Assembly (NCBI GenBank): GCA_030680695.1
Contig: JAUXUT010000149.1
Span: forward strand, 357,000-420,999
Direction of reading: 5' to 3'
From: a bacterium
GTDB lineage: Bacteria; Patescibacteriota; Minisyncoccia; Phycocordibacterales; UBA6065
DNA length: 64,000 nt
Part shown: positions 10,659 through 60,050 of the stretch, one piece after another
How positions within the stretch are numbered: the first letter of the stretch is position 1
How the letters are laid out: each line of letters begins with the position of its first letter
Notes under the pieces: model-generated
What the model saw: the letters and a program-made list of their open reading frames with translations, nothing else
Databases searched by the model: none
What the model was told of the DNA's origin: nothing
Made by a program: the position numbers and the translations under genes

Positions 10659-10739
10659 GCCGAGGTGGCGAAATGGCAACCGCAATCGACTCAAAATCGA
10701 TCGTCGCAAGACTTGAGGGTTCGAGTCCCTCCCTCGGCA
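10659..10739 (+). tRNA. tRNA-Leu (anticodon CAA), class II
   Basis: GCCGAGG acceptor pairs with CCTCGGC; anticodon stem ATCGA/TCGAT with loop CTCAAAA; long variable arm; T-arm GAGGG-TTCGAGT-CCCTC. Confidence 0.8.
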
Positions 10740-10740
10740 C

Positions 10741-11316
10741 ATGATGCATACGCCCAATACAGCCTATATCGTAGGGGTGGCTCTTGGCGACGGGAATCTC
10801 TCTAATCCCAATGGTCGAGCCGTCAGGCTGCGTATAACGTGTGACAAAAAGTACCCGAAGGTTATAGAGAACATACTGATATCATTGAGAGTGGGTCTTC
10901 CTGACAACAAGGTAAGTCTCGTGTATCGGAATGCTCGATGCCTTGATATATCATGTTATTCAAATAAGCTTGAGAACTTACTCGGATGGCGAGCCGATCT
11001 TGGCTCGAAATACCTTCAAAGGGTTCATGTGCCTTCTTGGATATTCAGAGATCCCTGGCTTATCCGACCATGCGTTCGCGGTCTTATAGAGACTGATGGG
11101 TGTGTGTTCACTGACAGGGGCTATACTCATGTCAACTTCACGACTATTATTCCGGAACTAGCGACAGATATGGAAAGAATGCTCACAATTCTGGGATTTA
11201 CGTATTCGACTCAACTAATAATTGCGAAAAGCTCAAATCGTAAGCCAAAATATGTCATAAGGATTTGCAAAAGAGGCAAAGAGTTCGTGGACGAATTTGG
11301 TATAGACAAAAATTAG
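10741..11316 (+). CDS. LAGLIDADG homing endonuclease, two-motif single-chain type
   Basis: VGVALGDGNL and VRGLIETDGCV are the two LAGLIDADG motifs. The ATG lies 1 nt after the tRNA-Leu 3' end. Confidence 0.75.
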   Translation: MMHTPNTAYIVGVALGDGNLSNPNGRAVRLRITCDKKYPKVIENILISLRVGLPDNKVSLVYRNARCLDISCYSNKLENLLGWRADLGSKYLQRVHVPSWIFRDPWLIRPCVRGLIETDGCVFTDRGYTHVNFTTIIPELATDMERMLTILGFTYSTQLIIAKSSNRKPKYVIRICKRGKEFVDEFGIDKN

Positions 11317-14324: not shown

Positions 14325-15479
14325 TTACCGCAAGTATACGCGCGGCAAAAGCGGATTAATACGAGTCACTATCTCGTAATTTATGGTACCTGCTCGCGAT
14401 GCCAGCGCCTCGGCAGATATCGAGGTCTTCCCTTGCTTGCCAAGCAGAACGACCTCGTCACCAGCCTTGACCAACGGAATGTCTGTTACATCAATCACAG
14501 TCATGTCCATCGACACGCGGCCAAGGACCTTTGCAAGCTTGCCGCCGACAAGCACTTCGCCAGAGTTCGAAAGGCTTCGCGGAAAGCCGTGCCAGTATCC
14601 GACAGGTATAACGGCAATGCGTGAATCGCGCGTTGCTTCACATGTGAGATCATATCCGATCAGTGCGCCTTTCGGCACGAGCTTCACTTCGTTCACAATG
14701 GTCTTCCATGACAACACTGGGGTAAGAGAAATGCCAGGTAAGACACGGCGTGAGTGTGCCTCAATTTCTGGTGACGGCCACAAACCATAGATGGCGATGC
14801 CTGCACGAGCCATATCAAAATAATAATCTGGCGAAAAAAGAAGTCCTGAACTCGCAGATGCGTGGGTGATGGGTGTAAAACCTTTTTCGCGCAAACGAAA
14901 AATTACTGATTTAAAAGCCCCCGCCTGCTTGAGCGAATAATCTTCGTGGGCCGGGTCTTCCATCGCCGCGAAATGCGTGTATGCACCTTCGATGATTGCT
15001 TTTGTCTCGAAGGTCTTGCCTTCCATGACACGCACAGCTTGTTGGACTTGAGACTCGGGTATACCTTGGCGATGAAGACCAGTATCGAACTTCACATGGA
15101 TTTTTAAACGCCTGAACAGCTTTGCCTTGGCAAGAGCACGTAGACTGTCGAGGGACGAGATGGTGAGAGATACTCCTTTTTTTGCCGCAGTCTCGTAAAG
15201 TTCAGGCATGGTGAAGCCTAGGACTAGTACTGGTGACTTAATGCCGGAAGTGCGCAATTCCAAAGCTTCAGCGAGCTCGTCTACCGCGATCCAGTCTGCC
15301 CCGCCTTTTAATGCGGCCTTGGCACATTCAACCATGCCATGGCCATAAGCATTGGATTTAACCACAGCCATCATAGCTGCCCTACCAGATAGAGCAGATT
15401 TAAGTACCGCAGTGTTGCGCGCGATTGCGCCAAGATTGACCTCAAGCCATGTACGGTACGACTGAGACTTAATCTTCAT
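14325..15479 (-). CDS. alr: alanine racemase
   Basis: AVVKSNAYGHG is the PLP-lysine motif, within a 385-aa Alr fold. The true start is the MKIKSQ ATG at 15479; the track's extension runs through tRNA-Tyr. Confidence 0.8.
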   Translation of the reverse strand: MKIKSQSYRTWLEVNLGAIARNTAVLKSALSGRAAMMAVVKSNAYGHGMVECAKAALKGGADWIAVDELAEALELRTSGIKSPVLVLGFTMPELYETAAKKGVSLTISSLDSLRALAKAKLFRRLKIHVKFDTGLHRQGIPESQVQQAVRVMEGKTFETKAIIEGAYTHFAAMEDPAHEDYSLKQAGAFKSVIFRLREKGFTPITHASASSGLLFSPDYYFDMARAGIAIYGLWPSPEIEAHSRRVLPGISLTPVLSWKTIVNEVKLVPKGALIGYDLTCEATRDSRIAVIPVGYWHGFPRSLSNSGEVLVGGKLAKVLGRVSMDMTVIDVTDIPLVKAGDEVVLLGKQGKTSISAEALASRAGTINYEIVTRINPLLPRVYLR

Positions 15480-15488
15480 AATATTTTG

Positions 15489-15571
15489 TGCGCCGAGAGG
15501 GACTCGAACCCCCGATGCCCAGTGGGCGGGAGATTTACAGTCTCCTGGAATAGCCGCTATCCGATCGGCGC
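15489..15571 (-). tRNA. tRNA-Tyr (anticodon GTA), class II
   Basis: GCGCCGA acceptor pairs with TCGGCGC; anticodon stem GGAGA/TCTCC with loop CTGTAAA; long variable arm; T-arm GGGGG-TTCGAGT-CCCTC. Confidence 0.85.
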
Positions 15572-15658
15572 ATATGCTGGCAAATACTACTCTATCAGAT
15601 TTCACCAGTGAGGCAAATGAAAAGCCGCCACGTGGCGGCTTTTCCTGGTGACGTCGGA

Positions 15659-22885: not shown

Positions 22886-22916
22886 TTCTTCCCATCGTCC
22901 TAAAATTGGACGATGG
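22886..22916 (+). promoter_or_regulatory. perfect 12-bp stem hairpin sequestering the start codon of the downstream homing endonuclease
   Basis: TTCCCATCGTCC-taaaatt-GGACGATGGGAA; the 3' arm contains the ATG at 22913. Confidence 0.35.
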
Positions 22917-23590
22917 GAATACGACATACAGTAAACGAAGTCTTCTTTAGAGATTGGAACCCGAGGATGGCCTACACACTCGGTTACATATTCGCCGACG
23001 GATGTCTTGAGTATTACCCACGATTCAGACAAAAATATGTATCGATAGCAAGTACAGACAAAGATACACTAGAAAGACTGAGAGACTGGATGGATTCAAA
23101 ACATAGGATATCATCGCGCAAATCACCGCATGCTAATGGTGCTCAAATATTTGTACTCCGAATCGGAAATGCGAGACTCTACGATTCACTTACGCTACGA
23201 GGACTTTATCCGAGAAAATCTCTGACCGTGCCTTTTCCCCAAGTACCAAAAGATATACTCCATCATTTTGTGAGAGGCTACTTCGATGGCGATGGCTGTG
23301 TCGCACTTGAAAAAGTGATAAGAAAATCAGGCGCCATACGTCCACGCAAGCTCAATGTCATATTCACCTCAGGAAGCGAGACCTTTCTTCATAACCTCGC
23401 TTTAGCTCTAGAGCGATTCTCCTGCGTTAAGCCGCAAAATATCATACGAGCGTGGACCGCATTCCAACTGCGGTATTCCACAACAGACAGCGAGGCACTG
23501 TTTCGCTTTATGTATTCGGATGCGACTGACGACGAGTATCTTAAAAGAAAACATGCTATATTCATTGAGCATTTTTCCTTGAAGTCCTAG
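22913..23590 (+). CDS. LAGLIDADG homing endonuclease, two-motif type (second copy, different subfamily)
   Basis: LGYIFADGCL and VRGYFDGDGCV motifs. The stop codon overlaps the first nt of tRNA-Cys. An alternative start at MAYTLGY is possible. Confidence 0.7.
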   Translation: MGIRHTVNEVFFRDWNPRMAYTLGYIFADGCLEYYPRFRQKYVSIASTDKDTLERLRDWMDSKHRISSRKSPHANGAQIFVLRIGNARLYDSLTLRGLYPRKSLTVPFPQVPKDILHHFVRGYFDGDGCVALEKVIRKSGAIRPRKLNVIFTSGSETFLHNLALALERFSCVKPQNIIRAWTAFQLRYSTTDSEALFRFMYSDATDDEYLKRKHAIFIEHFSLKS

Positions 23591-23657
23591 TGGCGAAGCT
23601 GGTTAACGCGACGGTCTGCAAAACCGTTATTCGCCGGTTCGATCCCGGCCTAGGACT
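23584..23657 (+). tRNA. tRNA-Cys (anticodon GCA)
   Basis: GTCCTAG acceptor pairs with CTAGGAC; anticodon stem ACGGT/ACCGT with loop CTGCAAA; T-arm GCCGG-TTCGATC-CCGGC. Confidence 0.85.
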
Positions 23658-23667
23658 CAATAAAATA

Positions 23668-24188: not shown

Positions 24189-24563
24189 ATGAACATTAAA
24201 CCCACGAGAACGAGGACGCTGCTCCTCGTCGAGGATACTGACATACTACGAGACTTGCTCGAATTCGCCCTAGAAAGCCACCATTTTGTGGTAGTAGCGA
24301 AAAGCTCCTTTGCGGCGGGCCTACGGGCCATCCAAAAACAGGAGTATTTCGCCATCATCACGGACCAATTTCTGGGCGACGGCCATGGGACTGATCTTCT
24401 TGAGGAGGCCAAGGTTGAGCAACCTAATGCCCTTAGGTACCTCATGAGTTCAGCTCCAGAACCCAAGGGCCATTGCGCCCACACATTCTTGAGCAAGCTT
24501 GATCCAGCTCCGCTTCAACAACGGCTGTTGATAGCCATCGAAAAGGCAGGGTCTCGCAAATAA
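24189..24563 (+). CDS. stand-alone response-regulator receiver (REC) domain protein
   Basis: LLLVEDTDILRDL is the acidic pocket; IITDQ is the phospho-acceptor Asp; FLSKL carries the conserved Lys. There is no output domain. Confidence 0.65.
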   Translation: MNIKPTRTRTLLLVEDTDILRDLLEFALESHHFVVVAKSSFAAGLRAIQKQEYFAIITDQFLGDGHGTDLLEEAKVEQPNALRYLMSSAPEPKGHCAHTFLSKLDPAPLQQRLLIAIEKAGSRK

Positions 24564-24758: not shown

Positions 24759-26078
24759 ATGAAAAACCAGACCGTGATGGGGATGATCCTGTGGATCTTC
24801 GCCTTCTTCATCGCAGTCGCACTGTCCATCTACTTGATGGGTGTTGCGAACGTGCTCGTCTTAGGGCTCGGGACACTGATTTCACTCCCCTTGTGGGCGT
24901 GGGCAGTGTATCTGAGCGCGAAGACCGATCGACAGTTCACCTTCCGACGCACCGGAGAAATCAAGTTCAGTAAGGACGGCGAGGTGATCGACACGGTCAT
25001 CGCTCACGTCCCAGGGTTCTTCTATGACAAGGAGAACGATCTGATGGTCGAAGAGAAAGGCTCCGCGAACGGGCAGGGCGATGAGACAGACAGTAAGTTC
25101 TCTCGCTTGGTCAAGAAATTGGCCTCGGTCTTCGTGAAGGATGCGAAGAAGGACAAATCGGGCCTCGTGCTCGTGAGTCTCCTTTATCCATACCGCCGGC
25201 TTCACAGCTGGAAGTTCACGTGGACCAAGTTCGCGTCCAAGACACACAGCGAGGCGGGACGGGATCGGGTGTTCGATGATTACCTCATCGAGGAACGGAC
25301 AGAAGATGCGATAAAAAGCCTCTACTTCCAATACATCTACCCGATCGTGGTCAGGGAAATCGACCTCAAGGGCAAGATTCAGATAAAGATCCTGCTCCAG
25401 GTTACCCTCCGCGTGCGAAAGCCGTTGCACATCATCGGCTTTTACAAGGGAAACTTCCTGTCGGCCGTGATATCCGAAATCAAGGGCATTGTGGATAACG
25501 GCGTCGGTCATACCAAGGACATTGATGAATGGTATGCCGAAGACAGGGAGTCCGTCATCGACAAACTCCTGCACCCTTACAAGAACAAACTCTTGCAGGT
25601 GCTCGGGGGTGATCTCGAAATAGTGGACGCGTCCTACGTCAGCTTCGATTTCGACGGACCGAACGCCGAAATCAATCGAAAGGCCGCGTCCCAGAAAGAG
25701 CTTAATCGGCTAGAGGGTGACGGCACCATCGAAAAGGCGACGAAAGAAGCCGAGGCTGAGAAGAAACGGGCCGAACAAGAGATCACGAGGGCCCAGGGCG
25801 CGGCAAGAGCAGCCGAGCATGAGGCAACGGCCATAACGAGCATCGCTGCGGCGAAAGCTGCAGATGTCCGTATGGCTCTCGAGCAAGCGGCAAAGCATCC
25901 CCAGGGCGTGGAATTCCTCCTTGCGCGTGAGCGCACGGCGGCAACCGCTGCCTTCCGTGGCTCCACCCTGATCATGGATGGTTCTCGTGGAGGCGTCATG
26001 GTTTCAGCTGGCGAAAGCAAGCCGACCCAAGGCGAACCCAAGAAGGACAAGAAAGGCGAGAAGGAGGTGTCATCATGA
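24759..26078 (+). CDS. SPFH/band-7 (flotillin/YqiK-like) membrane protein, divergent
   Basis: Two N-terminal TM helices; a central region with a beta-rich core (KGKIQIKILLQVTLRVRKP); a C-terminal EA-rich helix (EAEAEKKRAEQEITRAQGAARAAEHEA...) that resembles the SPFH C-terminal AERE...AEGE region. Confidence 0.45.
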   Translation: MKNQTVMGMILWIFAFFIAVALSIYLMGVANVLVLGLGTLISLPLWAWAVYLSAKTDRQFTFRRTGEIKFSKDGEVIDTVIAHVPGFFYDKENDLMVEEKGSANGQGDETDSKFSRLVKKLASVFVKDAKKDKSGLVLVSLLYPYRRLHSWKFTWTKFASKTHSEAGRDRVFDDYLIEERTEDAIKSLYFQYIYPIVVREIDLKGKIQIKILLQVTLRVRKPLHIIGFYKGNFLSAVISEIKGIVDNGVGHTKDIDEWYAEDRESVIDKLLHPYKNKLLQVLGGDLEIVDASYVSFDFDGPNAEINRKAASQKELNRLEGDGTIEKATKEAEAEKKRAEQEITRAQGAARAAEHEATAITSIAAAKAADVRMALEQAAKHPQGVEFLLARERTAATAAFRGSTLIMDGSRGGVMVSAGESKPTQGEPKKDKKGEKEVSS

Positions 26079-26794
26079 ATCTCTTGAGCCAAACTTCCGC
26101 ATGGATGCTGTGGGTCGCGGTGACCCCCATCGCTGTGGCGATCTTGATAGTCATCATGATGTCCACGGATGCCAAGGATTGGATGAAGTCAACGGTTGCG
26201 GGTCAGACCGCGAACGGCAAAACCATCGCGATCCTCTGTGTCCTGATAACAGCCACGAACTACATCATCTCAAAGTTTAACTACGAGTGGTGGTGGGCGT
26301 TGTGGTTGCATGGACCGTTCTTCATGGTTAACCTTGCCATATTGCTGGGCTGCTGGATTAGCATGTCTACCTTCGGGAAACTCGCGAAGGTGGGCGCTGT
26401 CATCATGGTAGCCTTCGCTCTGGCGGGTTGGATCAAGGTTGCTGTCGAGTCGCCGACCAGGGCCGAGATTGCGGCCCAAGCTTCGGAAAGACAACAAGCG
26501 CAAGTCATGGTCCCAACCTTCCAACGAATCGAGGACACCATCCAAGTCCGCAAGGGCGAATGGTCTCACCCGATTGTTGCTGGCGACATCATTCAGATTC
26601 AGTCGGTCACCGGTCTATACGTTCGGTATGATGGGAAAGGCACCGGAAAGCCTATGGCGCCCGGGGTCAAGAACATCATCCCGTTCGAGGCGGTGATGCA
26701 GGAAGTCCGGTCAACCGACCAGGCCTTCTGGATCAAATATTGGCGCGTGGTGCCCACAACGGCACTGGGTGGCGATGATGATCCACTAGACTGA
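26075..26794 (+). CDS. NfeD-like membrane protein (4 TM plus C-terminal beta-barrel), SPFH partner candidate
   Basis: ATGA overlap with the upstream gene. Four TM helices, then RKGEWSHPIVAGDIIQIQSVTGLYVRYDG, which resembles the NfeD C-terminal GE-x-W...G-x-V-x-V motif. Confidence 0.4.
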   Translation: MNLLSQTSAWMLWVAVTPIAVAILIVIMMSTDAKDWMKSTVAGQTANGKTIAILCVLITATNYIISKFNYEWWWALWLHGPFFMVNLAILLGCWISMSTFGKLAKVGAVIMVAFALAGWIKVAVESPTRAEIAAQASERQQAQVMVPTFQRIEDTIQVRKGEWSHPIVAGDIIQIQSVTGLYVRYDGKGTGKPMAPGVKNIIPFEAVMQEVRSTDQAFWIKYWRVVPTTALGGDDDPLD

Positions 26795-26814
26795 AACTGT
26801 TCTTTAGTCAGGCA

Positions 26815-26846
26815 AAGGCCGCGCATTCTATGCGCGGCCTTTTTTC
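26815..26846. terminator. strong bidirectional terminator between the SPFH/NfeD operon and the pilin-like array
   Basis: GGCCGCGCAttctaTGCGCGGCC followed by TTTTTT. Confidence 0.65.
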
Positions 26847-26862: not shown

Positions 26863-27111
26863 CTACACCCCAAGCGTTCGTTCGAGGACTGCGATAATCC
26901 CCCACACCGAGATCATGATGAAGAGACCGACGGTGCTCCAGAGGATATGATTCTTACCCTGAGTGCGATCTGCGTCGCCGTCACCTTTGATGAAGTAGAC
27001 GTAAACTCCGTAGATGAAGTATACGATCGCGGCCGCAAACATAAGCTGGACGAGCGGATTGACCACTGCGGCAAAGAAGCTCCGTACCAGATCGTTATCG
27101 GTCGCATTCAT
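26863..27111 (-). CDS. small two-helix membrane protein, paralog 1 of the TrbC/VirB2-like family (no signal peptide)
   Basis: FAAAIVYFIYGVYVYFIKGDGDADRTQGKNHILWSTVGLFIMISVWGIIAVL shares the C-terminal helix-G[DE]xxG-x-AK-x-I-x-IIGLF-x-W-x-L module with the four upstream paralogs. Confidence 0.4.
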   Translation of the reverse strand: MNATDNDLVRSFFAAVVNPLVQLMFAAAIVYFIYGVYVYFIKGDGDADRTQGKNHILWSTVGLFIMISVWGIIAVLERTLGV

Positions 27112-27114
27112 CGA

Positions 27115-27483
27115 CTATCGAGGAAGGTTAAGGTTGTTGAGCGGATCCGTGTTTCCTCGTGGAGCGGTGTTGTCGAGTCCAAAAGAGTTGACGAGGATGT
27201 TTACAAGTCCCCATACCGACACCATCACGAAAAGAGCGATGATACCGTAAACAATCTTGTCTTTTGCTGCCTCTTTAGCACCTTCGTCTCCTGCGAGGAC
27301 GTACTTCGCGATACCGTAGATGAAGTATACGACTGCAGCAGCAATAATAAGAGGAAGTGCGACACTGAGGATGTCGGTGATGAACCTGATGACGCCATTA
27401 AGGTCGGTGACGTTCTCAGTTACCTGAGCCGCCACTACCGACGGGAGCGCGAACGATAGCGCTGCGATGCCGAGTGTTTTCAT
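27115..27483 (-). CDS. secreted two-helix membrane protein, paralog 2 (TrbC/VirB2-like topology)
   Basis: Signal peptide MKTLGIAALSFALPSVVAA|QV, then IIAAAVVYFIYGIAKYVLAGDEGAKEAAKDKIVYGIIALFVMVSVWGLVNIL. Confidence 0.45.
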   Translation of the reverse strand: MKTLGIAALSFALPSVVAAQVTENVTDLNGVIRFITDILSVALPLIIAAAVVYFIYGIAKYVLAGDEGAKEAAKDKIVYGIIALFVMVSVWGLVNILVNSFGLDNTAPRGNTDPLNNLNLPR

Positions 27484-27523
27484 ACGTTATTGTAAAGCCT
27501 GATAATTAATTAAAGGCCCCTAT

Positions 27524-27532
27524 ATTATACCA
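27524..27532 (-). promoter_or_regulatory. internal extended -10 promoter (TGGTATAAT) upstream of paralogs 2 and 1
   Basis: The reverse complement of tataccagcc reads ggcTGGTATAAT, about 40 nt upstream of the paralog-2 ATG in a 90-nt intergenic gap. Confidence 0.35.
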
Positions 27533-27573
27533 GCCAGAAACAGCTCCGAAAAGAGTCTGGGGATAAACGCGGC

Positions 27574-28056
27574 CTATCTTGGCGCCACGAGCTGTGGCGG
27601 GTTCTTGGCGTTAGTGTCAGAGAGCCTGAAGGTGTTATCGAGGATGTTAACCAAGCCCCAAATCGAAACCATCACGAAAAGACCGATGATGCCGTACAGG
27701 ATGATATTTCTACCCTCCTCTCTGCCTCCCTCTGTCATGAACTTCCATGCGCCATAAACCACATATAGCACCGAGAAGGCCATGATTAGATATACCGCGT
27801 AGTTGAAGAATCCGATAATACAGCTCACCACCCCAGCGACACCCTCCGATTTGAGATTCGAACATGACGAGATGCCGCCGCTGACCGACGGATTAGTAGC
27901 CACCACACGTCCCGTGTTGCCGACCTGCGTATATTGACCGCCGGACATAAACTCAACATATCCTTGAGGAATCTGCTGTTGTGCCAAAGAGACCGAAGGT
28001 GCAACAACAAACACCACAGCAGAAACAAGAAGCGTGACGACAAGTAATCTTTTCAT
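27574..28056 (-). CDS. secreted two-helix membrane protein, paralog 3 (Cys pair plus TrbC/VirB2-like C-module)
   Basis: Signal peptide; SSCSNLKSEGVAGVVSC; then AVYLIMAFSVLYVVYGAWKFMTEGGREEGRNIILYGIIGLFVMVSIWGLVNIL. Confidence 0.45.
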   Translation of the reverse strand: MKRLLVVTLLVSAVVFVVAPSVSLAQQQIPQGYVEFMSGGQYTQVGNTGRVVATNPSVSGGISSCSNLKSEGVAGVVSCIIGFFNYAVYLIMAFSVLYVVYGAWKFMTEGGREEGRNIILYGIIGLFVMVSIWGLVNILDNTFRLSDTNAKNPPQLVAPR

Positions 28057-28057
28057 G

Positions 28058-28489
28058 TTATCTGAAGCTATCTATGAGATTTTTAATGACTTCTGTAATG
28101 ACGTTCGCTCCGATAAGGAGGATTGCTCCTATAATTGTATACTTAAATGTATTTTTTGCATCCGTTATCTTATCCTCGCTTCCCTGCGCCACCACAAATT
28201 TGAAGCCCGATATGATAAGGAACACCGCAATCACGGCATAACTGAGGCTGTAGACGAAGTTGATGACCTTGAATATAAGGCCGCCGATGCTGTCCACGCC
28301 TTTCAATGGATTACAAAGCATCGTCTCGCAATTCTTCTGAGGCACAGGAGCAGGAGCTCGTTCCTGGGTAATGCCCTGCTCTCTTTCTTGGGTAATAGGC
28401 GGCAATGTCTGAGTTGGAGTCTGTGCTATCGCCACTGTTGGCACAAATAAGAGTGCGGCAACGAGAAAGATCTTGATAATAGTGTTCAT
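28058..28489 (-). CDS. secreted two-helix membrane protein, paralog 4
   Basis: Signal peptide; KNCETMLCNP; then VYSLSYAVIAVFLIISGFKFVVAQGSEDKITDAKNTFKYTIIGAILLIGANVITEVI. Confidence 0.4.
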   Translation of the reverse strand: MNTIIKIFLVAALLFVPTVAIAQTPTQTLPPITQEREQGITQERAPAPVPQKNCETMLCNPLKGVDSIGGLIFKVINFVYSLSYAVIAVFLIISGFKFVVAQGSEDKITDAKNTFKYTIIGAILLIGANVITEVIKNLIDSFR

Positions 28490-28492
28490 ATG

Positions 28493-29044
28493 CTAATTGC
28501 CGAGGAACTTATTGATAAACGATTCCGAGCTCTGGCTGCCGCCAATATTGTCGGCAAGGAAGTATCCGAGGAAAGCCTTCACAACTACGAATGCCGCAAG
28601 AATCCAGAACAAACCGATTATAAACGGCATCAACATCGATTTGGCCTTGGCCACTTTGCCTGAATCGCCGTTCGCCGTCAGATATGTGAAGGCAATCCAC
28701 ATGATCATACCAAGGGCGAGAGGTATGGCGAGATACAAGAGGAAGTTCACAATTCGGTTGGCGAGGATAAGAACGTGCTTGTATTCGCACGCCTCGCTAC
28801 CTTCGACGTAAACTGGCCTTGTCGTGCTGACGGGCTTTCCGCTCGAATCGGTCCCCATTACCGTCTCGAACATAGGTTGTCCGCTCGCATCAAGCTTCTG
28901 TTTCTTTACCCCATCACATGGGATGAGCTGGAAGCCAGGATCTTCTGGCCTGTCGACTTTTTGGGCGAAAGCGATGGAAGCTGGGGCGGCCAAGAACATT
29001 GCGAGTACCGTGGCCGAAAGAATCATGAACGAAAGCTTCTTCAT
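28493..29044 (-). CDS. secreted two-helix membrane protein, paralog 5
   Basis: Signal peptide; Cys pair (IPCDG...EACEY); then LLYLAIPLALGMIMWIAFTYLTANGDSGKVAKAKSMLMPFIIGLFWILAAFVVVKAFL. Confidence 0.4.
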   Translation of the reverse strand: MKKLSFMILSATVLAMFLAAPASIAFAQKVDRPEDPGFQLIPCDGVKKQKLDASGQPMFETVMGTDSSGKPVSTTRPVYVEGSEACEYKHVLILANRIVNFLLYLAIPLALGMIMWIAFTYLTANGDSGKVAKAKSMLMPFIIGLFWILAAFVVVKAFLGYFLADNIGGSQSSESFINKFLGN

Positions 29045-29048
29045 GCTA

Positions 29049-30332
29049 TTACTGGTTAGTCCTAATGATAGAGTCTATCTCTGAGCTCGCCGCCGATACT
29101 GCTTGGCTCGCACGATAACGACCACTCGTCACGTTATCGACGAGCCTCTCGAATACAATATTGGTCGCTTCACGGTTCGGATCAAGCCACGCTCTGGCCA
29201 TTAAAGCACTGCGGTAGAAAACGGCCGTATATGCGCTTCCAGGTGTCGAGGCCAAGAGGTCTCGACGTACAGGCGGAAGGCCAGATTTTGATGCCCATAG
29301 ATTCTGGAGGTTCGAACCAGTCAAGATTGCCGCGGCTGATACTGATGGACCGATATTCGGCGAACTCTTCAGAAAAGCGAAGGCTGTCATATGACCGAAA
29401 GTTGCAGTCCTACCCGAGGCTTGTGGTATGACTGCAACATCGAAATTCAAGTTTGGGTTGGCAGACCTGATGCCCTGAAGTTCACTCGCATAGCCAAAAT
29501 ACATGGCAAGCTTCCCCGCTATAAACATGTCACGGTCGTTCATAAGCGAGCGATTCCATGTATAAGCTGGCTTTGATGGATTGGAGAACTCCGTAAAGAA
29601 ATTAATGGCCTGCTCGCCAGGAACTTGTCCTTGGCTCACACCGAATACGCTCGTCACTATGCCGCGGGCGTCGCGGGCAACGATCGGCGTTCCTGCTTGC
29701 ATCGAAAGCAGGGCGAGCATATCTTTGTAGTGGACGATATTCGCGGACGATCCCATGGCCACCATCGCTTGTGATATGCCTCCACCAACATCTTTCTTAA
29801 TTACTTTCGGGGCGAGCGCATAAAGTTCATTCCAAGTGGTCGGCGGGAGGCTTACGCCCGCCTCGCCGAATATCTCACGGTTCCAATACATAACCATTGG
29901 ATTGACCGAGAACGGCAAACCGATGACCCCGCCTGGGACGAGGTAGAGCTCGCTTCCCTCTATGAATGAATCCTTGAAGGTGCGTTCGGAATAGTTCTCG
30001 AACGGAACGACGAAAAACTTGTCTGCCTGCTTGAGGATGAGGTCCTGTGGCCAGAGAACCATGTCTGGACCCTGTCCGCGAGCCAATGATGCAATCAGTT
30101 CGGATTCGAAAGTCGCGGCCTGTTTTTGGACATATACGACGTTAAGCTGGTCTCGGTACTCGAGCCTTGCATCGCCGAGAAATCCCGACATGAGGCTATG
30201 TGGGAAAGTGCCCCACAACACAACCTGGGGCGCCTCACCAGAATTATTTGTGCGGTTTAGGGCGAAGAGCGCCACGCCGAAGACTGCGCATGCGATGAGT
30301 ACTCCGGTGAATATAAGTTGAAAGCGTGACAT
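29049..30332 (-). CDS. membrane-anchored extracellular solute-binding protein (ABC-type family 1 fold), orphan
   Basis: N-terminal TM; LVPGGVIGLPFSVNPMVMYWNREIFGEAGVSLPPTTWNELYALAPKV matches the family 1 SBP hinge region. No permease or ATPase genes are adjacent. Confidence 0.55.
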   Translation of the reverse strand: MSRFQLIFTGVLIACAVFGVALFALNRTNNSGEAPQVVLWGTFPHSLMSGFLGDARLEYRDQLNVVYVQKQAATFESELIASLARGQGPDMVLWPQDLILKQADKFFVVPFENYSERTFKDSFIEGSELYLVPGGVIGLPFSVNPMVMYWNREIFGEAGVSLPPTTWNELYALAPKVIKKDVGGGISQAMVAMGSSANIVHYKDMLALLSMQAGTPIVARDARGIVTSVFGVSQGQVPGEQAINFFTEFSNPSKPAYTWNRSLMNDRDMFIAGKLAMYFGYASELQGIRSANPNLNFDVAVIPQASGRTATFGHMTAFAFLKSSPNIGPSVSAAAILTGSNLQNLWASKSGLPPVRRDLLASTPGSAYTAVFYRSALMARAWLDPNREATNIVFERLVDNVTSGRYRASQAVSAASSEIDSIIRTNQ

Positions 30333-30338
30333 GTGGCC

Positions 30339-30866
30339 TTATTGCTTGCGGAATATCATACCATAATGGTGCGCCCCGGCCGTAAACTCGCGATCGAAAG
30401 CGAAACCAGTCTCGTGTGCGAGCTTCATGGCGTCGTCCTTGTACACGACATGACCTGGATGTGGGCCAATCTGCCCAAACGATCCGGACCACTCAATAAG
30501 CATGAACTTCCCTTTTTGCTTGAGGATGCGTTTTGCCTCCAAGAAAAATGTTTTCTTGTCTTCGAGCATGAACAGAATGTTTGATGCGATACAAGCGTCA
30601 ACCGAAACATCACGAATCTTAGAGCCACCGAGTTTCTCGAGATCCCCTGCAATCACATCGATATTACGAATATGTTGTCGTTGGGCTTCTTTCTTGAGCC
30701 TGTCGAGAAGATCTCGTTGAACGTCCACAGCGTAAACCTTACCCGTTGGGGCGACGGCCTTGGCGGCGGCGAGACTATAAAAGCCAGAACCTGCACCAAG
30801 ATCCGCAACAATGTTTCCGTCAGATAAACCTGCCTCTTCGACGTTTCGCTCGGGATTGCTGAACAT
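30339..30866 (-). CDS. class I SAM-dependent methyltransferase
   Basis: VADLGAGSGFYSL is motif I (GxGxG), with a Rossmann-like succession over 175 aa. Confidence 0.7.
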   Translation of the reverse strand: MFSNPERNVEEAGLSDGNIVADLGAGSGFYSLAAAKAVAPTGKVYAVDVQRDLLDRLKKEAQRQHIRNIDVIAGDLEKLGGSKIRDVSVDACIASNILFMLEDKKTFFLEAKRILKQKGKFMLIEWSGSFGQIGPHPGHVVYKDDAMKLAHETGFAFDREFTAGAHHYGMIFRKQ

Positions 30867-30889
30867 GCTTAAAGTATAGCAAATATAGA

Positions 30890-30921
30890 AAAGAAAAAGG
30901 CCCGCTCTTGCGCGCGGGCCT
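30890..30921 (-). terminator. terminator after the 30936-32171 gene
   Basis: The minus strand reads GGCCCGCGCGcaagaGCGGGCC followed by TTTTTCTTTTC. Confidence 0.6.
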
Positions 30922-30935
30922 CGACAAAATAACTT

Positions 30936-32171
30936 TTACCGCACATACACTATCCGTAGCGGCTTGCCATCGGCACGGGGCCTCGGCAGCCAGAACTGTG
31001 CCTTTTGGACGTCTTCGGGCAGGTTGATGACCGTCGTCGGCACCCCATCAATGATGACCGTCGATAAATGCATCTCGATTGGCTCACTGATGATGGGCTT
31101 CCTGGCGAACCACGGACTGAAGTCCATGGTCACGTAGACGCCGCGCGGGTCATCGATAATCACCCTGCCTTGATCGACCGCCCGCTTGCTGAACCAACGT
31201 GGATTCACGTTGTCGCCGGGACCGTAGACCAACTCCTGGCGCTTGCCCATCAGACGATCGGCGTCCGCGAAGACCCGGCCCGAATGAACGGGCGCCGGCT
31301 CGACAACTGGAACAGGTGCCGGGACTGGCTTTGGCTGCTCGACCGCTGGTGCCGGTGCTGGCTCTGGTTCTACCTTAGGAGCAGGCTCAGGTTGTGCAAC
31401 GGGTACTGGCGGATCAGGACGCTTGAACAGCTCGAGGAACTCCGCGAAGAGACCTCTCGCCTTAGCAGCATCTTCCGCCGTCGAAGCACTGGTTGTTTCA
31501 ATCTCGACGGCAGCAGCGTGAACATCATCGATTTTGCCGATGATTTCATCCTTGGACCGATTGACGGCTTCAATGGTCGCGTTGGCACGACCGTCGGCTA
31601 CTTCGCTCTGTTCAACCAAGATCGTTCCAATATCCTTCTTGAGCGACACGAGGCCCTTCTCGACGGACGTGACGACCCGGCTGCCGCTGAGGCTGCCTAT
31701 GACCACGATCACGAAGGTGCAGGCGAGCATGACGGACGAGAGACCAATGAACCAGGGCCAGAAAGGCCGCGACTTGTTCTTCTCGACACAAGCACAGGTC
31801 ACTGCGTTCTCTTGAGAGTTGGTATCTCGAGAAGCACCGATGCTGGCCTTGATTTCCTTGACTGCGCCGTCGATCTTTTCGTCGATTTTCGCTTCGAGGG
31901 TGGCCTGCAAGGTCCCGACGGCTTCGGTCGCCGCACTGGCTTCGGCCCTGGTCTTTTCAACTTCACCTTCAAGGCTCCCGATGGATTCATTGACCTCTTT
32001 GAATCCTTTTTTAATGAGAACCTCTTGGGCATGCTGTTTCTTGACGAACGCCATGAAGGGCTTGCGCCCCTTGACGGAGATTTCCTTCGCGAGATCACGA
32101 AGAAAGGTTCTGGTGACGGTCCGGGACGGACCAGCATCTTCTGCGGTTGGCATATGTATGTGGGGTTTCAA
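30936..32171 (-). CDS. hypothetical single-pass membrane protein with a Pro-rich (PxP) linker and C-terminal extracytoplasmic domain
   Basis: Cytoplasmic coiled-coil N-region, TM helix FWPWFIGLSSVMLACTFVIVVIG, a PEPAPKVEPEPAPAPAVEQPKPVPAPVPVVEPAP linker, and a ~115-aa C-domain with no recognised motif. Confidence 0.35.
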   Translation of the reverse strand: MKPHIHMPTAEDAGPSRTVTRTFLRDLAKEISVKGRKPFMAFVKKQHAQEVLIKKGFKEVNESIGSLEGEVEKTRAEASAATEAVGTLQATLEAKIDEKIDGAVKEIKASIGASRDTNSQENAVTCACVEKNKSRPFWPWFIGLSSVMLACTFVIVVIGSLSGSRVVTSVEKGLVSLKKDIGTILVEQSEVADGRANATIEAVNRSKDEIIGKIDDVHAAAVEIETTSASTAEDAAKARGLFAEFLELFKRPDPPVPVAQPEPAPKVEPEPAPAPAVEQPKPVPAPVPVVEPAPVHSGRVFADADRLMGKRQELVYGPGDNVNPRWFSKRAVDQGRVIIDDPRGVYVTMDFSPWFARKPIISEPIEMHLSTVIIDGVPTTVINLPEDVQKAQFWLPRPRADGKPLRIVYVR

Positions 32172-32318: not shown

Positions 32319-34808
32319 CTACAGACAAACAACGGATGCGAGCGAATCCCCGTCACGCAATTTCATTATACGCACACCCTGGGTCGAGCGACCGAGGACT
32401 GGGATTTCGGCGAGCGAGACACGAACAACCTGCGATTTCTTGGACATCGCAACGAGCTCGCTGTCTTCTTCGGTGACAACCTTGGCCGATATAATTGGCC
32501 CGGTCTTATCGGTGCAATTCATTGTGAGAATTCCTGATCCGCCGCGACCCTGGGTCTTGTACTCGCTCATCTCGGTGGTCTTGCCGTAGCCATTCTTTGA
32601 TATGACCATGAGGCGAGTGCCCTTGGCGCCGGCCTTCACAACATCGGCGCTGATAACTGTGTCACCTTTGGCAAGATTGATGCCGCGGACACCCATGGCA
32701 GAACGTCCCATCTCGCGCACGTCGGCTTCCTCGAACCTGATTGACTGGCCGTCGGCTGTAACAATAGAAACGTCGTTGCCTTTAGACGAGAACGATGCGG
32801 ATGTGAGCGCGTCGCCTGGTTCAAGGGTGATGGCGATGATGCCAGATCGGCGCACATCGTGGAACGATTCTGCTTTCACCTTCTTCACTGTTCCCTGCTT
32901 GGTAACCATCATAATAGAAAGTTCTGTCGAACCCTTGGTCGCCTTCGGCATGGAAAGAATTGATGTGACCTTCTCGTTGTCGGCAAGCGACAAGAAATTC
33001 ACAAGGGCCTTGCCCTTGGTCGCACGGCGGCCTTCTGGGAGCTCGTACATCTTGATCTGATATGCCTTCCCCTTGTCTGTAAAGAAGAGCATATCAGCAT
33101 GGGTGTTCGCGGTGACGAGGTTTGTGACGAAATCCTCTTCCTTTGTATCAAGGTCGATTACGCCAACACCGCCGCGTTTCTGTTTGCGGTACTCATCCGG
33201 CATGGTTCGTTTAACATATCCGCCCTGGGTGAGCACGAGCACATTTTCGACGTCTGGAATAAGGTCTTCGTCAGACATGGCTTTCACGCCGCCCTTGATG
33301 ACACGTGTGCGACGTTCATCGCCGAACTTTGCCTTGATGTCGGCGAGCTCTTGTTTGATAACGCCGAGGATTTTCTTCGGCGAGGCGAGAAGTGCTTTCA
33401 ATTCCTCGATAAGAGCCTGGACAGATTTGAGTTCATCCTCAACTTTCTTGCGCTCAAGTCCTGCGAGCTTTTGGAGGCGCATGTCGAGAATTGCCTGGGC
33501 CTGAAGGACCGAGAACTTGAAGGTTTTCATGAGACCAGCCTTGGCATCTTCAACGGACGCAGACTTGCGGATCAGTTTGATGATCTCGTCTATGTGGTCG
33601 AGGGCTTTCTTGAGGCCAAGCAAGATGTGTTCACGAGCCTCGGCAATGCGAAGATCGTATGCGCTGCGGCGTTTAACCACCTCGATGCGGTGCTCGATGA
33701 AGTTTTCAAGAATAGTCTTGAGGGCAAGAGTTTCTGGACGACCCTTCACGAGGGCGACGATGTTCAAATGGAACGTATCTTCGAGTTGAGTGTGCTTGAA
33801 CAGGAAGTTAAGAATCTTCTGTGGATGTGAACCTTGTTTAAGATCAATAACGATACGAATGTCTTTTGCAGATTCGTCGCGGAGGCCCTTGATGCCTTCG
33901 ATTTTCTTTTCGCGGACGAGGTTTGCGATATTAACGATGAGGTCGGCCTTAATCACGCGATATGGAATCGATGTGATGATAATTTGGAACTGGCCAGCCT
34001 TGTTCTCGACGATTTCAGCGTCGCCACGTGTGACGATGCCGCCCTTTCCAGTAGTATATGCGTGATGAATATCTTTTTCGCCGTAAATATTTCCGCCCGT
34101 AGGAAAGTCAGGTCCTTTTATAAATTGTAGAAGGTCCTCGGTTGAAGCGTCCTTGTTTTCAATAAGATGAGTCGTCGCATCAATGACTTCGCTCAGGTTA
34201 TGCGGAGGAATGTTCGTTGCCATTCCCACTGCGATACCAAGAGTACCGTTGAGAAGAAGATTGGGAACGGCTGTTGGTAGAACCGTAGGCTCCTTCTTTG
34301 TGTTGTCGTAGTTCGGACGGAAGTCCACTGTTTCCTTCTCGAGGTCTTTGAGAAGTTCACCTGCGAGGCGCGACATTTTAGCCTCGGTGTATCGGTACGC
34401 GGCCGCACCGTCACCGTCGATCGATCCGAAGTTTCCTTGGCCGATGACGAGTGGATATCGCATCGAGAAATCCTGGGCCATTTTCACCATCGCCTCGTAC
34501 ACAGACGAGTCACCGTGCGGATGATATTTACCGAGCACGTCTCCCACGATCGTCGCAGACTTTTTTGTCTTGGCTGATGCGGTGAGACCGATGTCGTTCA
34601 TCGCATACAAAATACGGCGGTGAACGGGTTTTAGTCCGTCGCGAACATCAGGAAGCGCGCGAGCCGTAATGACGGACATCGCGTAGTCGAGATACGACTC
34701 GCGCATCTCTGTAACTATCGAGCGTGCCTGTATGCCCTTCTCTTCGAACGGCAGCTTTGGATCCGGCGTGGCGGCCGAGGGATTGGAATTGGGATTCTTT
34801 GGGCTCAT
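32319..34808 (-). CDS. gyrA: DNA gyrase subunit A
   Basis: [15 protein letters not shown] active-site Tyr region, plus a C-terminal beta-pinwheel, over 829 aa. Confidence 0.95.
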
Positions 34809-46474: not shown

Positions 46475-47167
46475 CTAGTTCCTCTTGTCGCTTATGACCC
46501 TACCATCGTCGAGCTTCACCACGCGCTTGGCGAGCATACTGTATTCTTCTTCGTGGGTGACCATAATAATAGTCTGTCCTTGGGCGTGAATTTCCTCGAA
46601 AAGCTCCATGACCGTGCGCGAAGATTCATTGTCGAGGTTCGCGGTCGGTTCGTCTGCGAATAGTATCTGAGGCTTATGAGCCAAGGCACGGGCAACAGAC
46701 ACGCGTTGCTGTTCGCCTCCAGAAAGCTGCCCAGGGAGGTTTGTAAACCTGTGACCAAGGCCAACGCGTTCCAATGCTGTGTGGGCTTCCGTATAGGCGA
46801 CCATTTTGGACTTGCCTTGCATCATGAGAGGCAGTGCGACGTTCTCTTCTGCGGTGAGGTCCGGCAGAAGGGCGTAATCCTGGAATACATATCCGAGCTG
46901 ATTAAGACGGAACATGGTTTTCTCGTCCGGCGTCATGGCGTGGGTGTCGGTACCGAATACTATGATCTCACCTGACGTTGGCTCATCAAGGAGCGACAAC
47001 TGATACAAAAAGGTGGATTTACCTGCGCCCGATCGTCCGATGATGGCGATGAATTCCCCTTCCTCGACAGTGAAGTCTATGCCCTTCAATACGTGCGTTT
47101 CTTTATCGCCGTTCTTGAACGATTTTGTGAGGCCGCGTACTTCTATGAGTTTATTCTTGTATTTCAT
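46475..47167 (-). CDS. ABC transporter ATP-binding protein (MacB/FtsE/LolD type)
   Basis: IIGRSGAGKSTFL Walker A, LSGGEQQRVSVARAL signature and ILFADEPT Walker B. The true start is MKYKNK at 47167; the track's 47224 start would overlap the permease by 44 nt. Confidence 0.85.
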   Translation of the reverse strand: MKYKNKLIEVRGLTKSFKNGDKETHVLKGIDFTVEEGEFIAIIGRSGAGKSTFLYQLSLLDEPTSGEIIVFGTDTHAMTPDEKTMFRLNQLGYVFQDYALLPDLTAEENVALPLMMQGKSKMVAYTEAHTALERVGLGHRFTNLPGQLSGGEQQRVSVARALAHKPQILFADEPTANLDNESSRTVMELFEEIHAQGQTIIMVTHEEEYSMLAKRVVKLDDGRVISDKRN

Positions 47168-47180
47168 GGCTTTGGTATGA

Positions 47181-48428
47181 CTAGTTTCGTCCAAGGATAG
47201 AATCGAGGATATTCTTGCGCACAATCATACGAGCCGGTATGTATCCCGCAATGATAGTGGTAAAGACAAGAAGAGCGATGCGCAACATAGTCCCGTCGAG
47301 CGGCGCGACCAAGATGCCGTCGGAGAACGGAAAGTTAATCGGATTAGCCGCGATGTACGGCTGGAGAATAACGTACAGCACGAAAAGTCCAATGGACGAG
47401 CCGATGACCGCGTAAAATATCGACTGGAAAACATATGACGTTTCAATCGCTGTGCCGCTGATGCCGATTCCCTTCATGATACCGATGAACTTGCGGCGCG
47501 TGATGGCGTTTATGAAGATGACGATGAATATCGTAATCGAGGCGACGGCAAGACCGATCGAGCTGATCATGTTTCCGAGAAGGGCGAATGTGGCCTTGAT
47601 ATCTTGAAGAAACTTCGGCTGGGCATCCTCGAAAGTCTGGACGCGAGCAAACTCCCCCACGCCGGATCTGATTAAGCTGTCACGAACGACTACCGCACTG
47701 GCGCCAGGTTTTAGTTTGATGGATATTTCATCTACGTTATAGTCACCGCGGCCGATGAGCGAGCGGAACTGAGAATCGACCATAAAAACGCGGAATGCGA
47801 GTTCGTCTACTTTTGCTTGAATAATGCCCTTCACTGTGACTTCGCGCGTGATGCCGTTGACCGTAATGCGCACCTTGTCGCCGATATTGATGTCAGAAAG
47901 AGTTGTAAAGCCTGGTGATTCAATCGGCAAGTATTTTTTCAAAAGGTTGGCGCCGATAAGTACCTGATCATAATCGCCAGGTTCAAGGTATTCACCCTCG
48001 ACGATAAAGCGAGAAAGGTTAGTGGTCTGGTCTTCGGCCACAGGGTCAATGCCCACGAAACTACCGCCCGCGCGCTCGATCTCGTCTGGGTCTATCGCCT
48101 CTTTATAATGAGCTTCGATCGTGCCACCCTGCAGGTATCGGGCCGCAAAAACCTGCGCCTCGGGCAACGCCGCGACAATCGAAAGTACCTGCGGACTTTG
48201 CTCGATATAATCCTTCTTCGGCAGGTTAGATATGATGACGTCGCTCGTATAATAAATCTTGTTCGCCTCGACTGCGCCTTCGATCAAGCCAACAAGCACA
48301 CCAGACACCACCACAAGATTAAGGAATGTGAGTGCCATCACAAAAACGATAAGACTTGTTGTCCATATGCTCGCCCTGCGCACCTGGCGCAATGCGAGAA
48401 AGAATCCTATACGTATAAATTGAGGCAT
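47181..48428 (-). CDS. ABC transporter permease (FtsX/MacB-like, large extracytoplasmic loop)
   Basis: N-terminal TM, a ~230-aa periplasmic domain and three C-terminal TM helices, which is the FtsX-like topology. Confidence 0.7.
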   Translation of the reverse strand: MPQFIRIGFFLALRQVRRASIWTTSLIVFVMALTFLNLVVVSGVLVGLIEGAVEANKIYYTSDVIISNLPKKDYIEQSPQVLSIVAALPEAQVFAARYLQGGTIEAHYKEAIDPDEIERAGGSFVGIDPVAEDQTTNLSRFIVEGEYLEPGDYDQVLIGANLLKKYLPIESPGFTTLSDINIGDKVRITVNGITREVTVKGIIQAKVDELAFRVFMVDSQFRSLIGRGDYNVDEISIKLKPGASAVVVRDSLIRSGVGEFARVQTFEDAQPKFLQDIKATFALLGNMISSIGLAVASITIFIVIFINAITRRKFIGIMKGIGISGTAIETSYVFQSIFYAVIGSSIGLFVLYVILQPYIAANPINFPFSDGILVAPLDGTMLRIALLVFTTIIAGYIPARMIVRKNILDSILGRN

Positions 48429-48446
48429 GTGGTGATATTACTCTTC

Positions 48447-59373: not shown

Positions 59374-59406
59374 GAAATCGCCCTATACGGGGCGATTTCT
59401 TGTTTT
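59374..59406 (+). terminator. terminator after the Hsp20 gene
   Basis: AGAAATCGCCCtatacGGGGCGATTTCT followed by TGTTTT. Confidence 0.6.
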
Positions 59407-59481
59407 GGTGCTTGGACCCAGGTTCGAACTGGGGACCCCTTCCTCTTCAGGGAAGTGCTCTACCAACTGAGCTATCCAAGC
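59407..59481 (-). tRNA. tRNA-Phe (anticodon GAA)
   Basis: Reverse complement gives GCTTGGA-TAGCTCAGTTGGTAGAGC...CTTCC-CTGAAGA-GGAAG...TTCGAAC...TCCAAGC-A-CCA. Confidence 0.85.
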
Positions 59482-59764: not shown

Positions 59765-59831
59765 GCCGTCATCTTAACACAGCAACAATCTCCGTAGAGA
59801 GTGGAACGATATCCACACTTTTAGATTTTAT

Positions 59832-60050
59832 TTAGATCGAAAGGATCTGACTGTACGCGTCCTTCGCGGTATCCACATATGGCTGTAGGAAATACAAGGC
59901 CCCTAGCGAAAGACCGATAATAAATAACCAGTAAACGGCCGTCATGATGTTCGCTATGCGGCGGGAGCGTTTGAGCATCTTGAGATCGCGCGAGTTGGAG
60001 GCGGTCGCTTCGCGTATTTCTACTAACATCTGGTGTTCTTCTGGTGTCAT
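59832..60050 (-). CDS. small single-TM protein (holin-like topology; hypothetical)
   Basis: 72 aa; charged N-terminus, then one TM (IMTAVYWLFIIGLSLGALYFL), immediately downstream of the giant S74 protein. Confidence 0.25.
   Translation of the reverse strand: MTPEEHQMLVEIREATASNSRDLKMLKRSRRIANIMTAVYWLFIIGLSLGALYFLQPYVDTAKDAYSQILSI

Follow-up and report, generated by a model that had tools for sequence, protein, structure and literature searches.

Tandem arrays of VirB2-like genes are already known from Patescibacteria. A search of 3,035 genomes with the Pfam families PF18895 (T4SS_pilin) and PF04956 (TrbC/VirB2) found 441 arrays of 2-11 such genes in 383 assemblies, with ~25% identity between copies; a Patescibacteria clade of VirB4 was present in 2,407 of the ~3,035 assemblies, and virB4 in Paceibacteria usually lay near dnaA and dnaN (Quinonero-Coronel et al. 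2025, PMC12102498). In Southlakia epibionticum, six PF18895 genes (SEML1_0014-0019) adjoin VirB6, VirB4 and PrgI and are essential (Wang et al. 2023, PMC10633639; see also PMC12857230). A 2025 review describes the Patescibacteria systems as the only pilin-bearing type IV secretion systems (T4SSs) of monoderm bacteria (PMC12857230). This report examines an array in a different setting, on a stretch of 64,000 nucleotides (nt) from contig JAUXUT010000149.1 (positions 357,000 to 420,999), referred to below as the window. On the minus strand at 26863-30866, seven co-oriented, consecutive open reading frames (ORFs) encode a methyltransferase, a protein with a solute-binding fold (the binding protein) and five small pilin-like proteins, named P5 to P1 in the order of transcription. 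The unifying point is conservation: across many species the same three parts stand in the same order, each pilin position corresponds to a subunit type of its own, and promoter-like elements recur at two places in the unit.

A first-pass annotation of this DNA had regarded the combination as not a described system. Given that the arrays are known and annotated, that claim was too broad; tandem VirB2-like genes have been published (PMC12102498), and P2 of the window (GenBank MDP1625195.1) already carries the annotation 'pilin'. What is left of it is the partnership with a binding protein and a methyltransferase away from virB4, which was found in none of the papers searched. The literature on Patescibacteria pilin arrays yielded no mention of a solute-binding protein, a methyltransferase, positional orthology or an internal promoter, which is absence of evidence only. 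Hence the aspects for which no description was found, and which are put forward here as new, are the conserved three-part operon, the fixed subunit order, the separation from virB4 and the putative internal promoter with its DnaA-box-like motif.

In the direction of transcription, the features of the unit are as follows (lengths of proteins in amino acids, aa; scores against PF18895):

30897..30922, minus strand: intrinsic-terminator-like hairpin with a 9-bp stem (7 G-C pairs) and a T-run; 5′ boundary of the unit
30873..30881, minus strand: extended −10 box TGcTATACT, just after the upstream terminator; 6 nt separate its end from the ATG of the methyltransferase gene
30339..30866, minus strand: methyltransferase, 175 aa; first gene of the unit
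29049..30332, minus strand: binding protein (solute-binding fold, membrane-anchored), 427 aa
28493..29044, minus strand: pilin P5 (position-1 type), 183 aa; 33.2 bits
28058..28489, minus strand: pilin P4 (position-2 type), 143 aa; 41.6 bits
27574..28056, minus strand: pilin P3 (middle type), 160 aa; 27.4 bits
27484..27573, minus strand: conserved long gap between P3 and P2 with a putative internal promoter, 90 nt
27558-27565, minus strand: core of the DnaA-box-like motif TTTATCCCCA, near the 5′ end of the 90-nt gap
27524-27532, minus strand: extended −10 box TGgTATAAT; spacer from motif to hexamer 28 nt
27115..27483, minus strand: pilin P2 (penultimate type), 122 aa; 41.8 bits
26863..27111, minus strand: pilin P1 (last type), 82 aa; 43.8 bits
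26814..26842, between convergent genes: palindromic hairpin of 13 bp, G+C-rich; 3′ boundary of the unit

All seven ORFs are present where the first-pass annotation had placed them and in the orientation it gave. The intergenic gaps from methyltransferase to P1 measure 6, 4, 3, 1, 90 and 3 nt. A spacing of 1-4 nt had been claimed for the pilin genes; this applies to three of the four gaps (3, 1 and 3 nt) and fails for the 90 nt between P3 and P2, a distance that is itself conserved. The idea of two bracketing terminators needs a similar amendment. Hairpins are found at both ends, and that at 30897-30922 terminates the upstream gene (30936-32171). The one at 26814-26842 has its T-run on the plus strand and an A-run on the other side, so that the minus strand continues after the stem with only 'TTTgcc'; the position of the T-run indicates that this hairpin primarily serves the convergent plus-strand gene.

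The assignment of the five small proteins is based on family membership. In the Pfam search, each of them exceeds the curated gathering cut-off of PF18895 (26.6 bits), with scores of 27.4-43.8 bits and E-values of 3e-11 to 3.5e-6; as this holds for five small proteins separately, the family match is not a matter of chance. Against PF04956, for which the cut-off is 27.9 bits, P4 remains below the threshold at 27.1 bits; its orthologues from 39 species match PF18895 in 39/39 cases and PF04956 in 33/39, with a best E-value of 6.3e-9. NCBIfam returned sub-threshold matches of the pilins to NF045849, a pilin-like conjugal transfer protein of a mycoplasma integrative and conjugative element (ICE). 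The common C-terminal module of P1-P5 comprises two hydrophobic helices and a polar loop, and the aligned copies are 15-37% identical to P1. In P2-P5, the N-terminus is a signal-peptide-like segment that terminates in A-x-A/Q. P1 starts without such a segment and could not accommodate one, its gene being separated from the P2 stop codon by just 3 nt. The class III signal of type IV pilins (G/FxxxE) is absent from all five sequences, the sole match (Pilin_N in P3, E 0.51) being at chance level. On sequence evidence, the five proteins are members of the TrbC/VirB2 pilin superfamily. The first-pass annotation had read them in this way, as TrbC/VirB2-like proteins distinct from type IV pilins, with a shared two-helix module and a signal peptide missing from the last copy alone, and the profile searches and alignments bear it out on each of these points.

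Relatives of the binding protein allow the unit to be followed across species. A scan of one genome per species gave at least 562 of them; the best 80, together with four exact look-ups, make up the 84 related loci from different species considered here. A pilin profile built from the window pilins and iterated to convergence identified 386 pilin-like ORFs in these loci. The gene order is near-universal: gyrA, 0-2 genes, methyltransferase, binding protein, and then 3-8 pilins. In every locus with room downstream, the gene next after the binding-protein gene encodes a pilin (77/77, the exceptions being contig ends), and this adjacency holds down to ~40% binding-protein identity. In 72 related loci the methyltransferase gene immediately precedes that of the binding protein, at a median distance of 9 nt. 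Packing is similarly tight further along, with median gaps of 4 nt between binding protein and first pilin, 7.5 nt between first and second pilin and 9.5 nt between middle pilins, and with many 4-nt overlaps. Co-occurrence of the three parts in related genomes, a point raised by the first-pass annotation, is well documented by these figures. Among the matches listed, the named relatives of the binding protein are from Paceibacterota, Parcubacteria, Taylorbacteria, Zambryskibacteria and Wolfebacteria, which places the source of the window in class Paceibacteria of the Patescibacteria. Some related loci carry the label 'Candidatus Saccharibacteria', which stems from bulk submissions and is unconfirmed. 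In a few loci, one or two extra pilin-like genes lie between gyrA and the methyltransferase gene (L005, 5832-6299; L007, 5583-6053; L017, 4695-5156; L012, 807-1852).

Within the array, the positions are not interchangeable. The best match of P5 in other species occupies array position 1 in 57/64 loci, and that of P4 position 2 in 59/63; for P2 it is the penultimate gene in 48/61 loci, and for P1 the last gene in 48/60. P3, the middle type, represents the position with variable copy number between species. Complete arrays most commonly have 5, 6 or 7 genes (27, 16 and 13 loci, respectively).

Each type also has its own build. P5 consists of a signal peptide, a Cys-containing N-terminal ectodomain, the two-helix module and a C-terminal tail. 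A Cys pair before the module had been described as a frequent feature; it is found in P3, P4 and P5, but only the first position conserves it, as at least two Cys precede the module in 95% of position-1 orthologues versus 0-19% at other positions. P4, the most TrbC-like copy, combines a signal peptide, a linker rich in Pro, Thr and Gln, an NPLKG motif and the two-helix module, without a tail; the position-2 type is tailless in other species too, and carries a low-complexity linker after its signal peptide. In P2, the signal peptide is followed by a very short mature N-terminus, the two-helix module and a tail of ~20 aa. The AlphaFold model of P2 (54 homologues; mean predicted local distance difference test score, pLDDT, of 75) places helices at residues 3-20 (the signal), 28-63 and 67-100. 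P2 has 313 homologues, all with PF18895; several are named 'pilin' by NCBI, and the names include Paceibacterota, Parcubacteria and Taylorbacteria. It is a candidate for the major subunit. P1 is composed of the two-helix module alone, and a signal-peptide-like start occurs in only 4% of its orthologues.

The first-pass annotation had taken the divergence among the copies as a sign of diversifying subunits. This is not supported by the comparison between species, in which each position forms an orthogroup that is kept. When 22 five-gene arrays are compared with the window, median identities between orthologues are 36, 42.5, 42, 46 and 47% from P5 to P1; the binding protein reaches 46%, the methyltransferase 54% and GyrA 75%. 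Orthologues are closer to each other than paralogues within one genome, which favours a complex of defined components over rapid diversification. Judged by these identities, the pilin copies are old, fixed, position-specific subunit types, whose divergence roughly keeps pace with that of the binding protein.

The second regularity concerns the gap in front of the penultimate pilin gene. Its median length is 100.5 nt, and it is 20 nt or shorter in only 2% of 60 loci; all other gaps in the unit have medians of 4-17.5 nt across the related loci. The gap harbours a motif, T(T)ATCC(C/A)CA, that equals the DnaA-box consensus or a one-base variant of it. The form TATCC[AC]CA is present on the coding strand in 32/60 gaps, at 82 times its background density. 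From the end of the motif to the −10 hexamer there are 28-29 nt in 18/23 cases, and the hexamer frequently has the extended form TGnTATAAT. In a few species the motif apparently occurs inverted (TGTGGAT...). As a general promoter element TATCC[AC]CA was rejected, since its 4 copies in the 64-kb window correspond to chance level for the window as a whole. An Rfam scan of the window found tRNAs only and no known RNA element in the 90-nt gap. The gap therefore looks like the seat of an internal promoter for P2 and P1. Sites around −45 are a common position for activator binding, and the DnaA-box-like site, at about −45, would suit such a role; its candidate binders may include DnaA, the response regulator encoded nearby or another factor.

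The other promoter-like element is located at the head of the unit. A −10-like hexamer ends 5-9 nt before the methyltransferase start in 49/71 loci, compared with 2.6% of random positions. Because the −10 box abuts the start codon, the transcript beginning at the methyltransferase would be leaderless or nearly so. As read from these elements, the unit probably comprises two nested transcription units, one with methyltransferase, binding protein, P5, P4 and P3, and one with P2 and P1. The earlier proposal of a co-transcribed operon thus stands as far as co-orientation, tight packing and conserved linkage are concerned, whereas a single uniform polycistron is less apt, given the two probable promoters.

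Elsewhere in the window, two exact TATCCACA boxes occur on the plus strand at 59810-59817 and 59870-59877, 60 nt apart. They lie in a non-coding stretch of ~590 nt between tRNA-Phe (59406-59481) and an ORF of 1296 aa, and are not followed by a −10 box at the spacing seen in the pilin gap; the region may be related to a replication origin or be regulatory.

The binding protein belongs to the Pfam families SBP_bac_1 and SBP_bac_8 (PF01547/PF13416; 68.5 and 66.2 bits). It has an N-terminal transmembrane helix (residues 3-25), a variable linker and a MalE-like two-lobe domain, and its AlphaFold model reaches a mean pLDDT of 86. The best Foldseek matches of this model are oligosaccharide-binding proteins of the ATP-binding cassette (ABC) type, with E-values of ~1e-21 to 4e-23, template-modelling scores (TM-scores) of 0.65-0.73 and 15-20% identity; they bind manno-oligosaccharide, cyclodextrin, beta-1,2-gluco-oligosaccharide and maltodextrin. 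Column conservation in 82 species is 0.57 for both the anchor helix (residues 1-25) and the globular domain, and 0.31 for the linker (26-36); at least 90% of these species retain the anchor residues F4 and F23. This degree of conservation hints at a membrane partner for the anchor, and is suggestive only. The possibility that the protein is a lipoprotein ('LIAC', residues 12-15) was considered and rejected, as the Cys is not conserved in orthologues and residues 3-25 form a single helix.

The methyltransferase is a bare class I S-adenosylmethionine (SAM)-binding domain, with matches to Pfam Methyltransf_31, _11 and _25 (E 1e-14 to 1e-17). NCBIfam gave sub-threshold matches only, with no equivalog at the cut-off, and among solved structures the nearest is 3dh0, a SAM methyltransferase that is itself uncharacterised. 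The enzyme may modify one of the pilins or the binding protein before export.

The surroundings are those of a chromosome. The window contains housekeeping genes, namely gyrA (32319-34808), topA, clpB, infB, ftsA, ftsZ, parB, dprA, tRNA synthetases and a P-type ATPase, as well as eleven tRNA genes, and its guanine-plus-cytosine (G+C) content is even. Together with the synteny beside gyrA, these neighbours and the even G+C indicate a chromosomal locus rather than a mobile element. A Pfam scan covered 47 ORFs, which include most of the larger ORFs of the window; none of the 47 encodes a relaxase, an integrase or an ABC-importer permease, and the only ABC system among them is an exporter of the MacB/FtsX-HlyD type (46475-49916). 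A cognate permease or ATPase for the binding protein is likewise missing from the annotated related loci.

These properties are best accommodated by a non-mobile core-genome operon of Paceibacteria (Parcubacteria, candidate phyla radiation) for heteromeric subunits of a VirB2-type filament or T4SS stalk, together with a glycan-binding partner; we hold this reading to be reasonably likely. In such a scheme, P2-P5 would most likely be exported by the Sec pathway, cleaved after A-x-A and held in the membrane as two-helix hairpins, and P1 would be inserted into the membrane without a leader. The five pilins would form a pool of distinct subunits for a heteromeric surface filament or for the stalk of a monoderm-type T4SS, the VirB4/VirB6 core of which would be encoded elsewhere in the genome. 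P5, P4 and P3, with their larger ectodomains, would be co-translated with the binding protein from the leaderless promoter at the methyltransferase gene and could be low-abundance or specialised subunits that work with the glycan-binding partner. P2 and P1 would be the bulk or core subunits, under their own factor-dependent promoter in the gap of 90-100 nt. The binding protein might act as an adhesin, a receptor or an assembly factor, perhaps in the role that VirB5 has in other systems, and the methyltransferase would modify one of these proteins before export. To our knowledge, VirB5 has not been reported in Patescibacteria.

A more detailed version of this scheme makes the binding protein a built-in part of the pilus. 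Its anchor would dock to P5, P4 and P3 and its glycan-binding head would sit at the tip or base of the filament for host recognition, in replacement of VirB5; the DnaA-box-like site would give P2 and P1 a switch of their own, which could be tied to the cell cycle, and the methyltransferase would modify subunits before export. This elaboration is speculative, and rather unlikely in its entirety.

Several observations weigh against the operon for filament or stalk subunits. VirB4, VirB6 and VirD4 are all missing from the 47 scanned ORFs of the window, in agreement with the first-pass annotation, which had noted neither these genes nor an ABC permease nearby, and none of the 84 related loci has a large conserved ATPase in its flanks (~8 kb). 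Profiles of the P2 and P4 types, run against all solved structures, gave only chance-level matches and no pilin; a tblastn search with P4 against 72,556 plasmids gave no match. In the literature consulted, no report of a pilus of the VirB2-like kind on Paceibacteria was found. Finally, in the present analysis the link of the two accessory genes to the pilins is one of conserved gene order.

The most probable of the rivals is that the genes are merely co-transcribed: the binding protein would serve an ABC sugar importer encoded elsewhere, the methyltransferase would be a housekeeping enzyme, and the pilins would function independently of both. The standard MalE-type fold and Pfam families of the binding protein fit this picture, as do the purely generic matches of the methyltransferase, the fact that phmmer did not detect the latter in ~9/84 loci, and the frequency with which small genomes place unrelated genes in one operon. 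It does not readily explain, however, why a pilin gene invariably follows the binding-protein gene even in distant relatives, at a median distance of 4 nt and often with overlapping start and stop codons, nor why importer permease and ATPase genes are absent beside it in the window and in annotated loci. A passive tether would also not be expected to be as conserved as the globular domain, as the anchor helix is. Mere co-transcription is therefore considered fairly improbable.

A second alternative dispenses with the filament altogether. Hairpin subunits and binding protein would together constitute a membrane channel or receptor for the uptake or sensing of host oligosaccharides, independent of any T4SS. 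Fixed subunit types and fixed gene order do suggest a defined complex, the binding protein has a conserved anchor helix, and in this lineage the array never stands beside VirB4, either in the window or in the 84 loci. Set against this, the homology is to secretion-system pilins, and the same family is found, and is essential, inside the VirB4/VirB6 cluster of Southlakia; moreover, the locus lacks an energising component, and we know of no transporter built from VirB2-like hairpins. This alternative is accordingly given little credence.

The third, by which the array would encode class II bacteriocin-like or holin-like peptides or be the remnant of an integrated conjugative element, is suggested by the small size and tandem two-helix build of the proteins and by the weak NCBIfam matches to the mycoplasma ICE protein, but is contradicted by genomic context and family evidence, on which both the mobile-element and the bacteriocin/holin versions were rejected as highly improbable: the locus has no double-glycine leader, immunity gene, dedicated exporter, lysin, integrase or relaxase, it is syntenic beside gyrA in many species with even G+C, four of the five proteins have ordinary Sec-type signal peptides, and all five pass the pilin family threshold.

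Two sets of neighbouring genes were kept outside the unit. Between gyrA and the methyltransferase gene, the window has a minus-strand gene (30936-32171) for a protein of 411 aa whose N-terminus is a coiled coil weakly matching DUF948 and which also has a single transmembrane segment and a linker rich in Pro, Ala and Val; beyond the DUF948 match, it has no relatives in Pfam, NCBIfam or the PDB. The protein occurs at the same position only in the closest relative (L002), which points to a recent insertion into the conserved gene order. Downstream, and convergent to the array, two overlapping plus-strand genes encode membrane proteins of 439 aa (24759-26078) and 239 aa (26075-26794), neither of which has relatives in Pfam, NCBIfam or the PDB. 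In ~17 related loci, a gene for a homologue of the 439-aa protein comes shortly after the pilin array, and a response-regulator gene (24189-24563 in the window) comes next. The two membrane proteins may belong to the same functional neighbourhood.

A few other features of the window deserve mention. The 1296-aa ORF (60070-63960, minus strand) has as its sole Pfam match Peptidase_S74, the chaperone of endosialidase domain (residues 943-999), a weak hit at 22.4 bits where the cut-off is 22, and may encode a large surface or fibre-like protein. Two free-standing ORFs on the plus strand resemble LAGLIDADG-type homing endonucleases (10741-11316 and 22913-23590); each adjoins a tRNA gene, tRNA-Leu (10659-10740) and tRNA-Cys (23584-23658), respectively. 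ARAGORN places a tRNA-Tyr (15488-15571, minus strand) within the first part of the longest ORF for alanine racemase (14325-15605), a call that Rfam does not make at its gathering score; the overlap reflects either an over-extended ORF start or a spurious tRNA call.

Few ultra-small bacteria are as abundant, or as poorly understood, as the Paceibacteria, and what is at stake is how they attach to hosts and feed. In the one member of the Patescibacteria that has been studied genetically, a VirB2-like array is essential. A class-wide operon provides a candidate component for host recognition, a defined list of subunits and two conserved promoter elements. It also changes how such arrays are interpreted, as they are not simply fast-evolving variants.

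Compared with the known systems, the locus is closest to the published Patescibacteria arrays, including that of Southlakia. Common to both are membership of PF18895 (with PF04956 for some copies), tandem genes of low mutual identity (~25% there, 15-37% here), a chromosomal location in a monoderm, ultra-small host, and proteins made of a signal peptide and a two-helix module. The Southlakia array, however, is situated inside a VirB6/VirB4/PrgI cluster, whereas here none of these is among the scanned ORFs of the 64-kb window and no large ATPase lies within ~8 kb in the 84 loci. Unlike the published arrays as described, the present one is joined in a single unit to the genes for a methyltransferase and a MalE-like binding protein, next to gyrA, and has a fixed subunit order and a putative internal promoter with a DnaA-box-like motif.

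With the TrbC/VirB2 conjugative pilins of Gram-negative T4SSs (PF04956; for example TrwL of R388, PDB 8s6h), the five proteins share a leader, two hydrophobic helices and a short polar loop, and the P4 orthogroup is similar to them at the profile level. Those systems usually have one pilin gene, in a virB or trb operon that also encodes VirB3 and VirB4; the present array consists of five fixed paralogues remote from the machinery, which have ectodomains of up to ~70 residues and include one leaderless copy, and its host has no outer membrane. Neither an enzyme for head-to-tail cyclisation nor VirB5 is seen at this locus. The binding protein resembles the carbohydrate-type ABC binders such as MalE in its SBP_bac_1/SBP_bac_8 families and predicted fold. 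It differs from them in its low identity of 15-20%, in the lack of a permease or ATPase nearby, in the pilin genes that always come next, and in being anchored by a conserved transmembrane helix where ABC binders have a lipid or a cleaved signal peptide. Several divergent VirB2 copies per genome are also known from Bartonella and Anaplasma (cited in PMC12102498). Those copies are read as antigenic or host-range variants, whereas here each copy is a stable orthogroup that keeps the same position from species to species.

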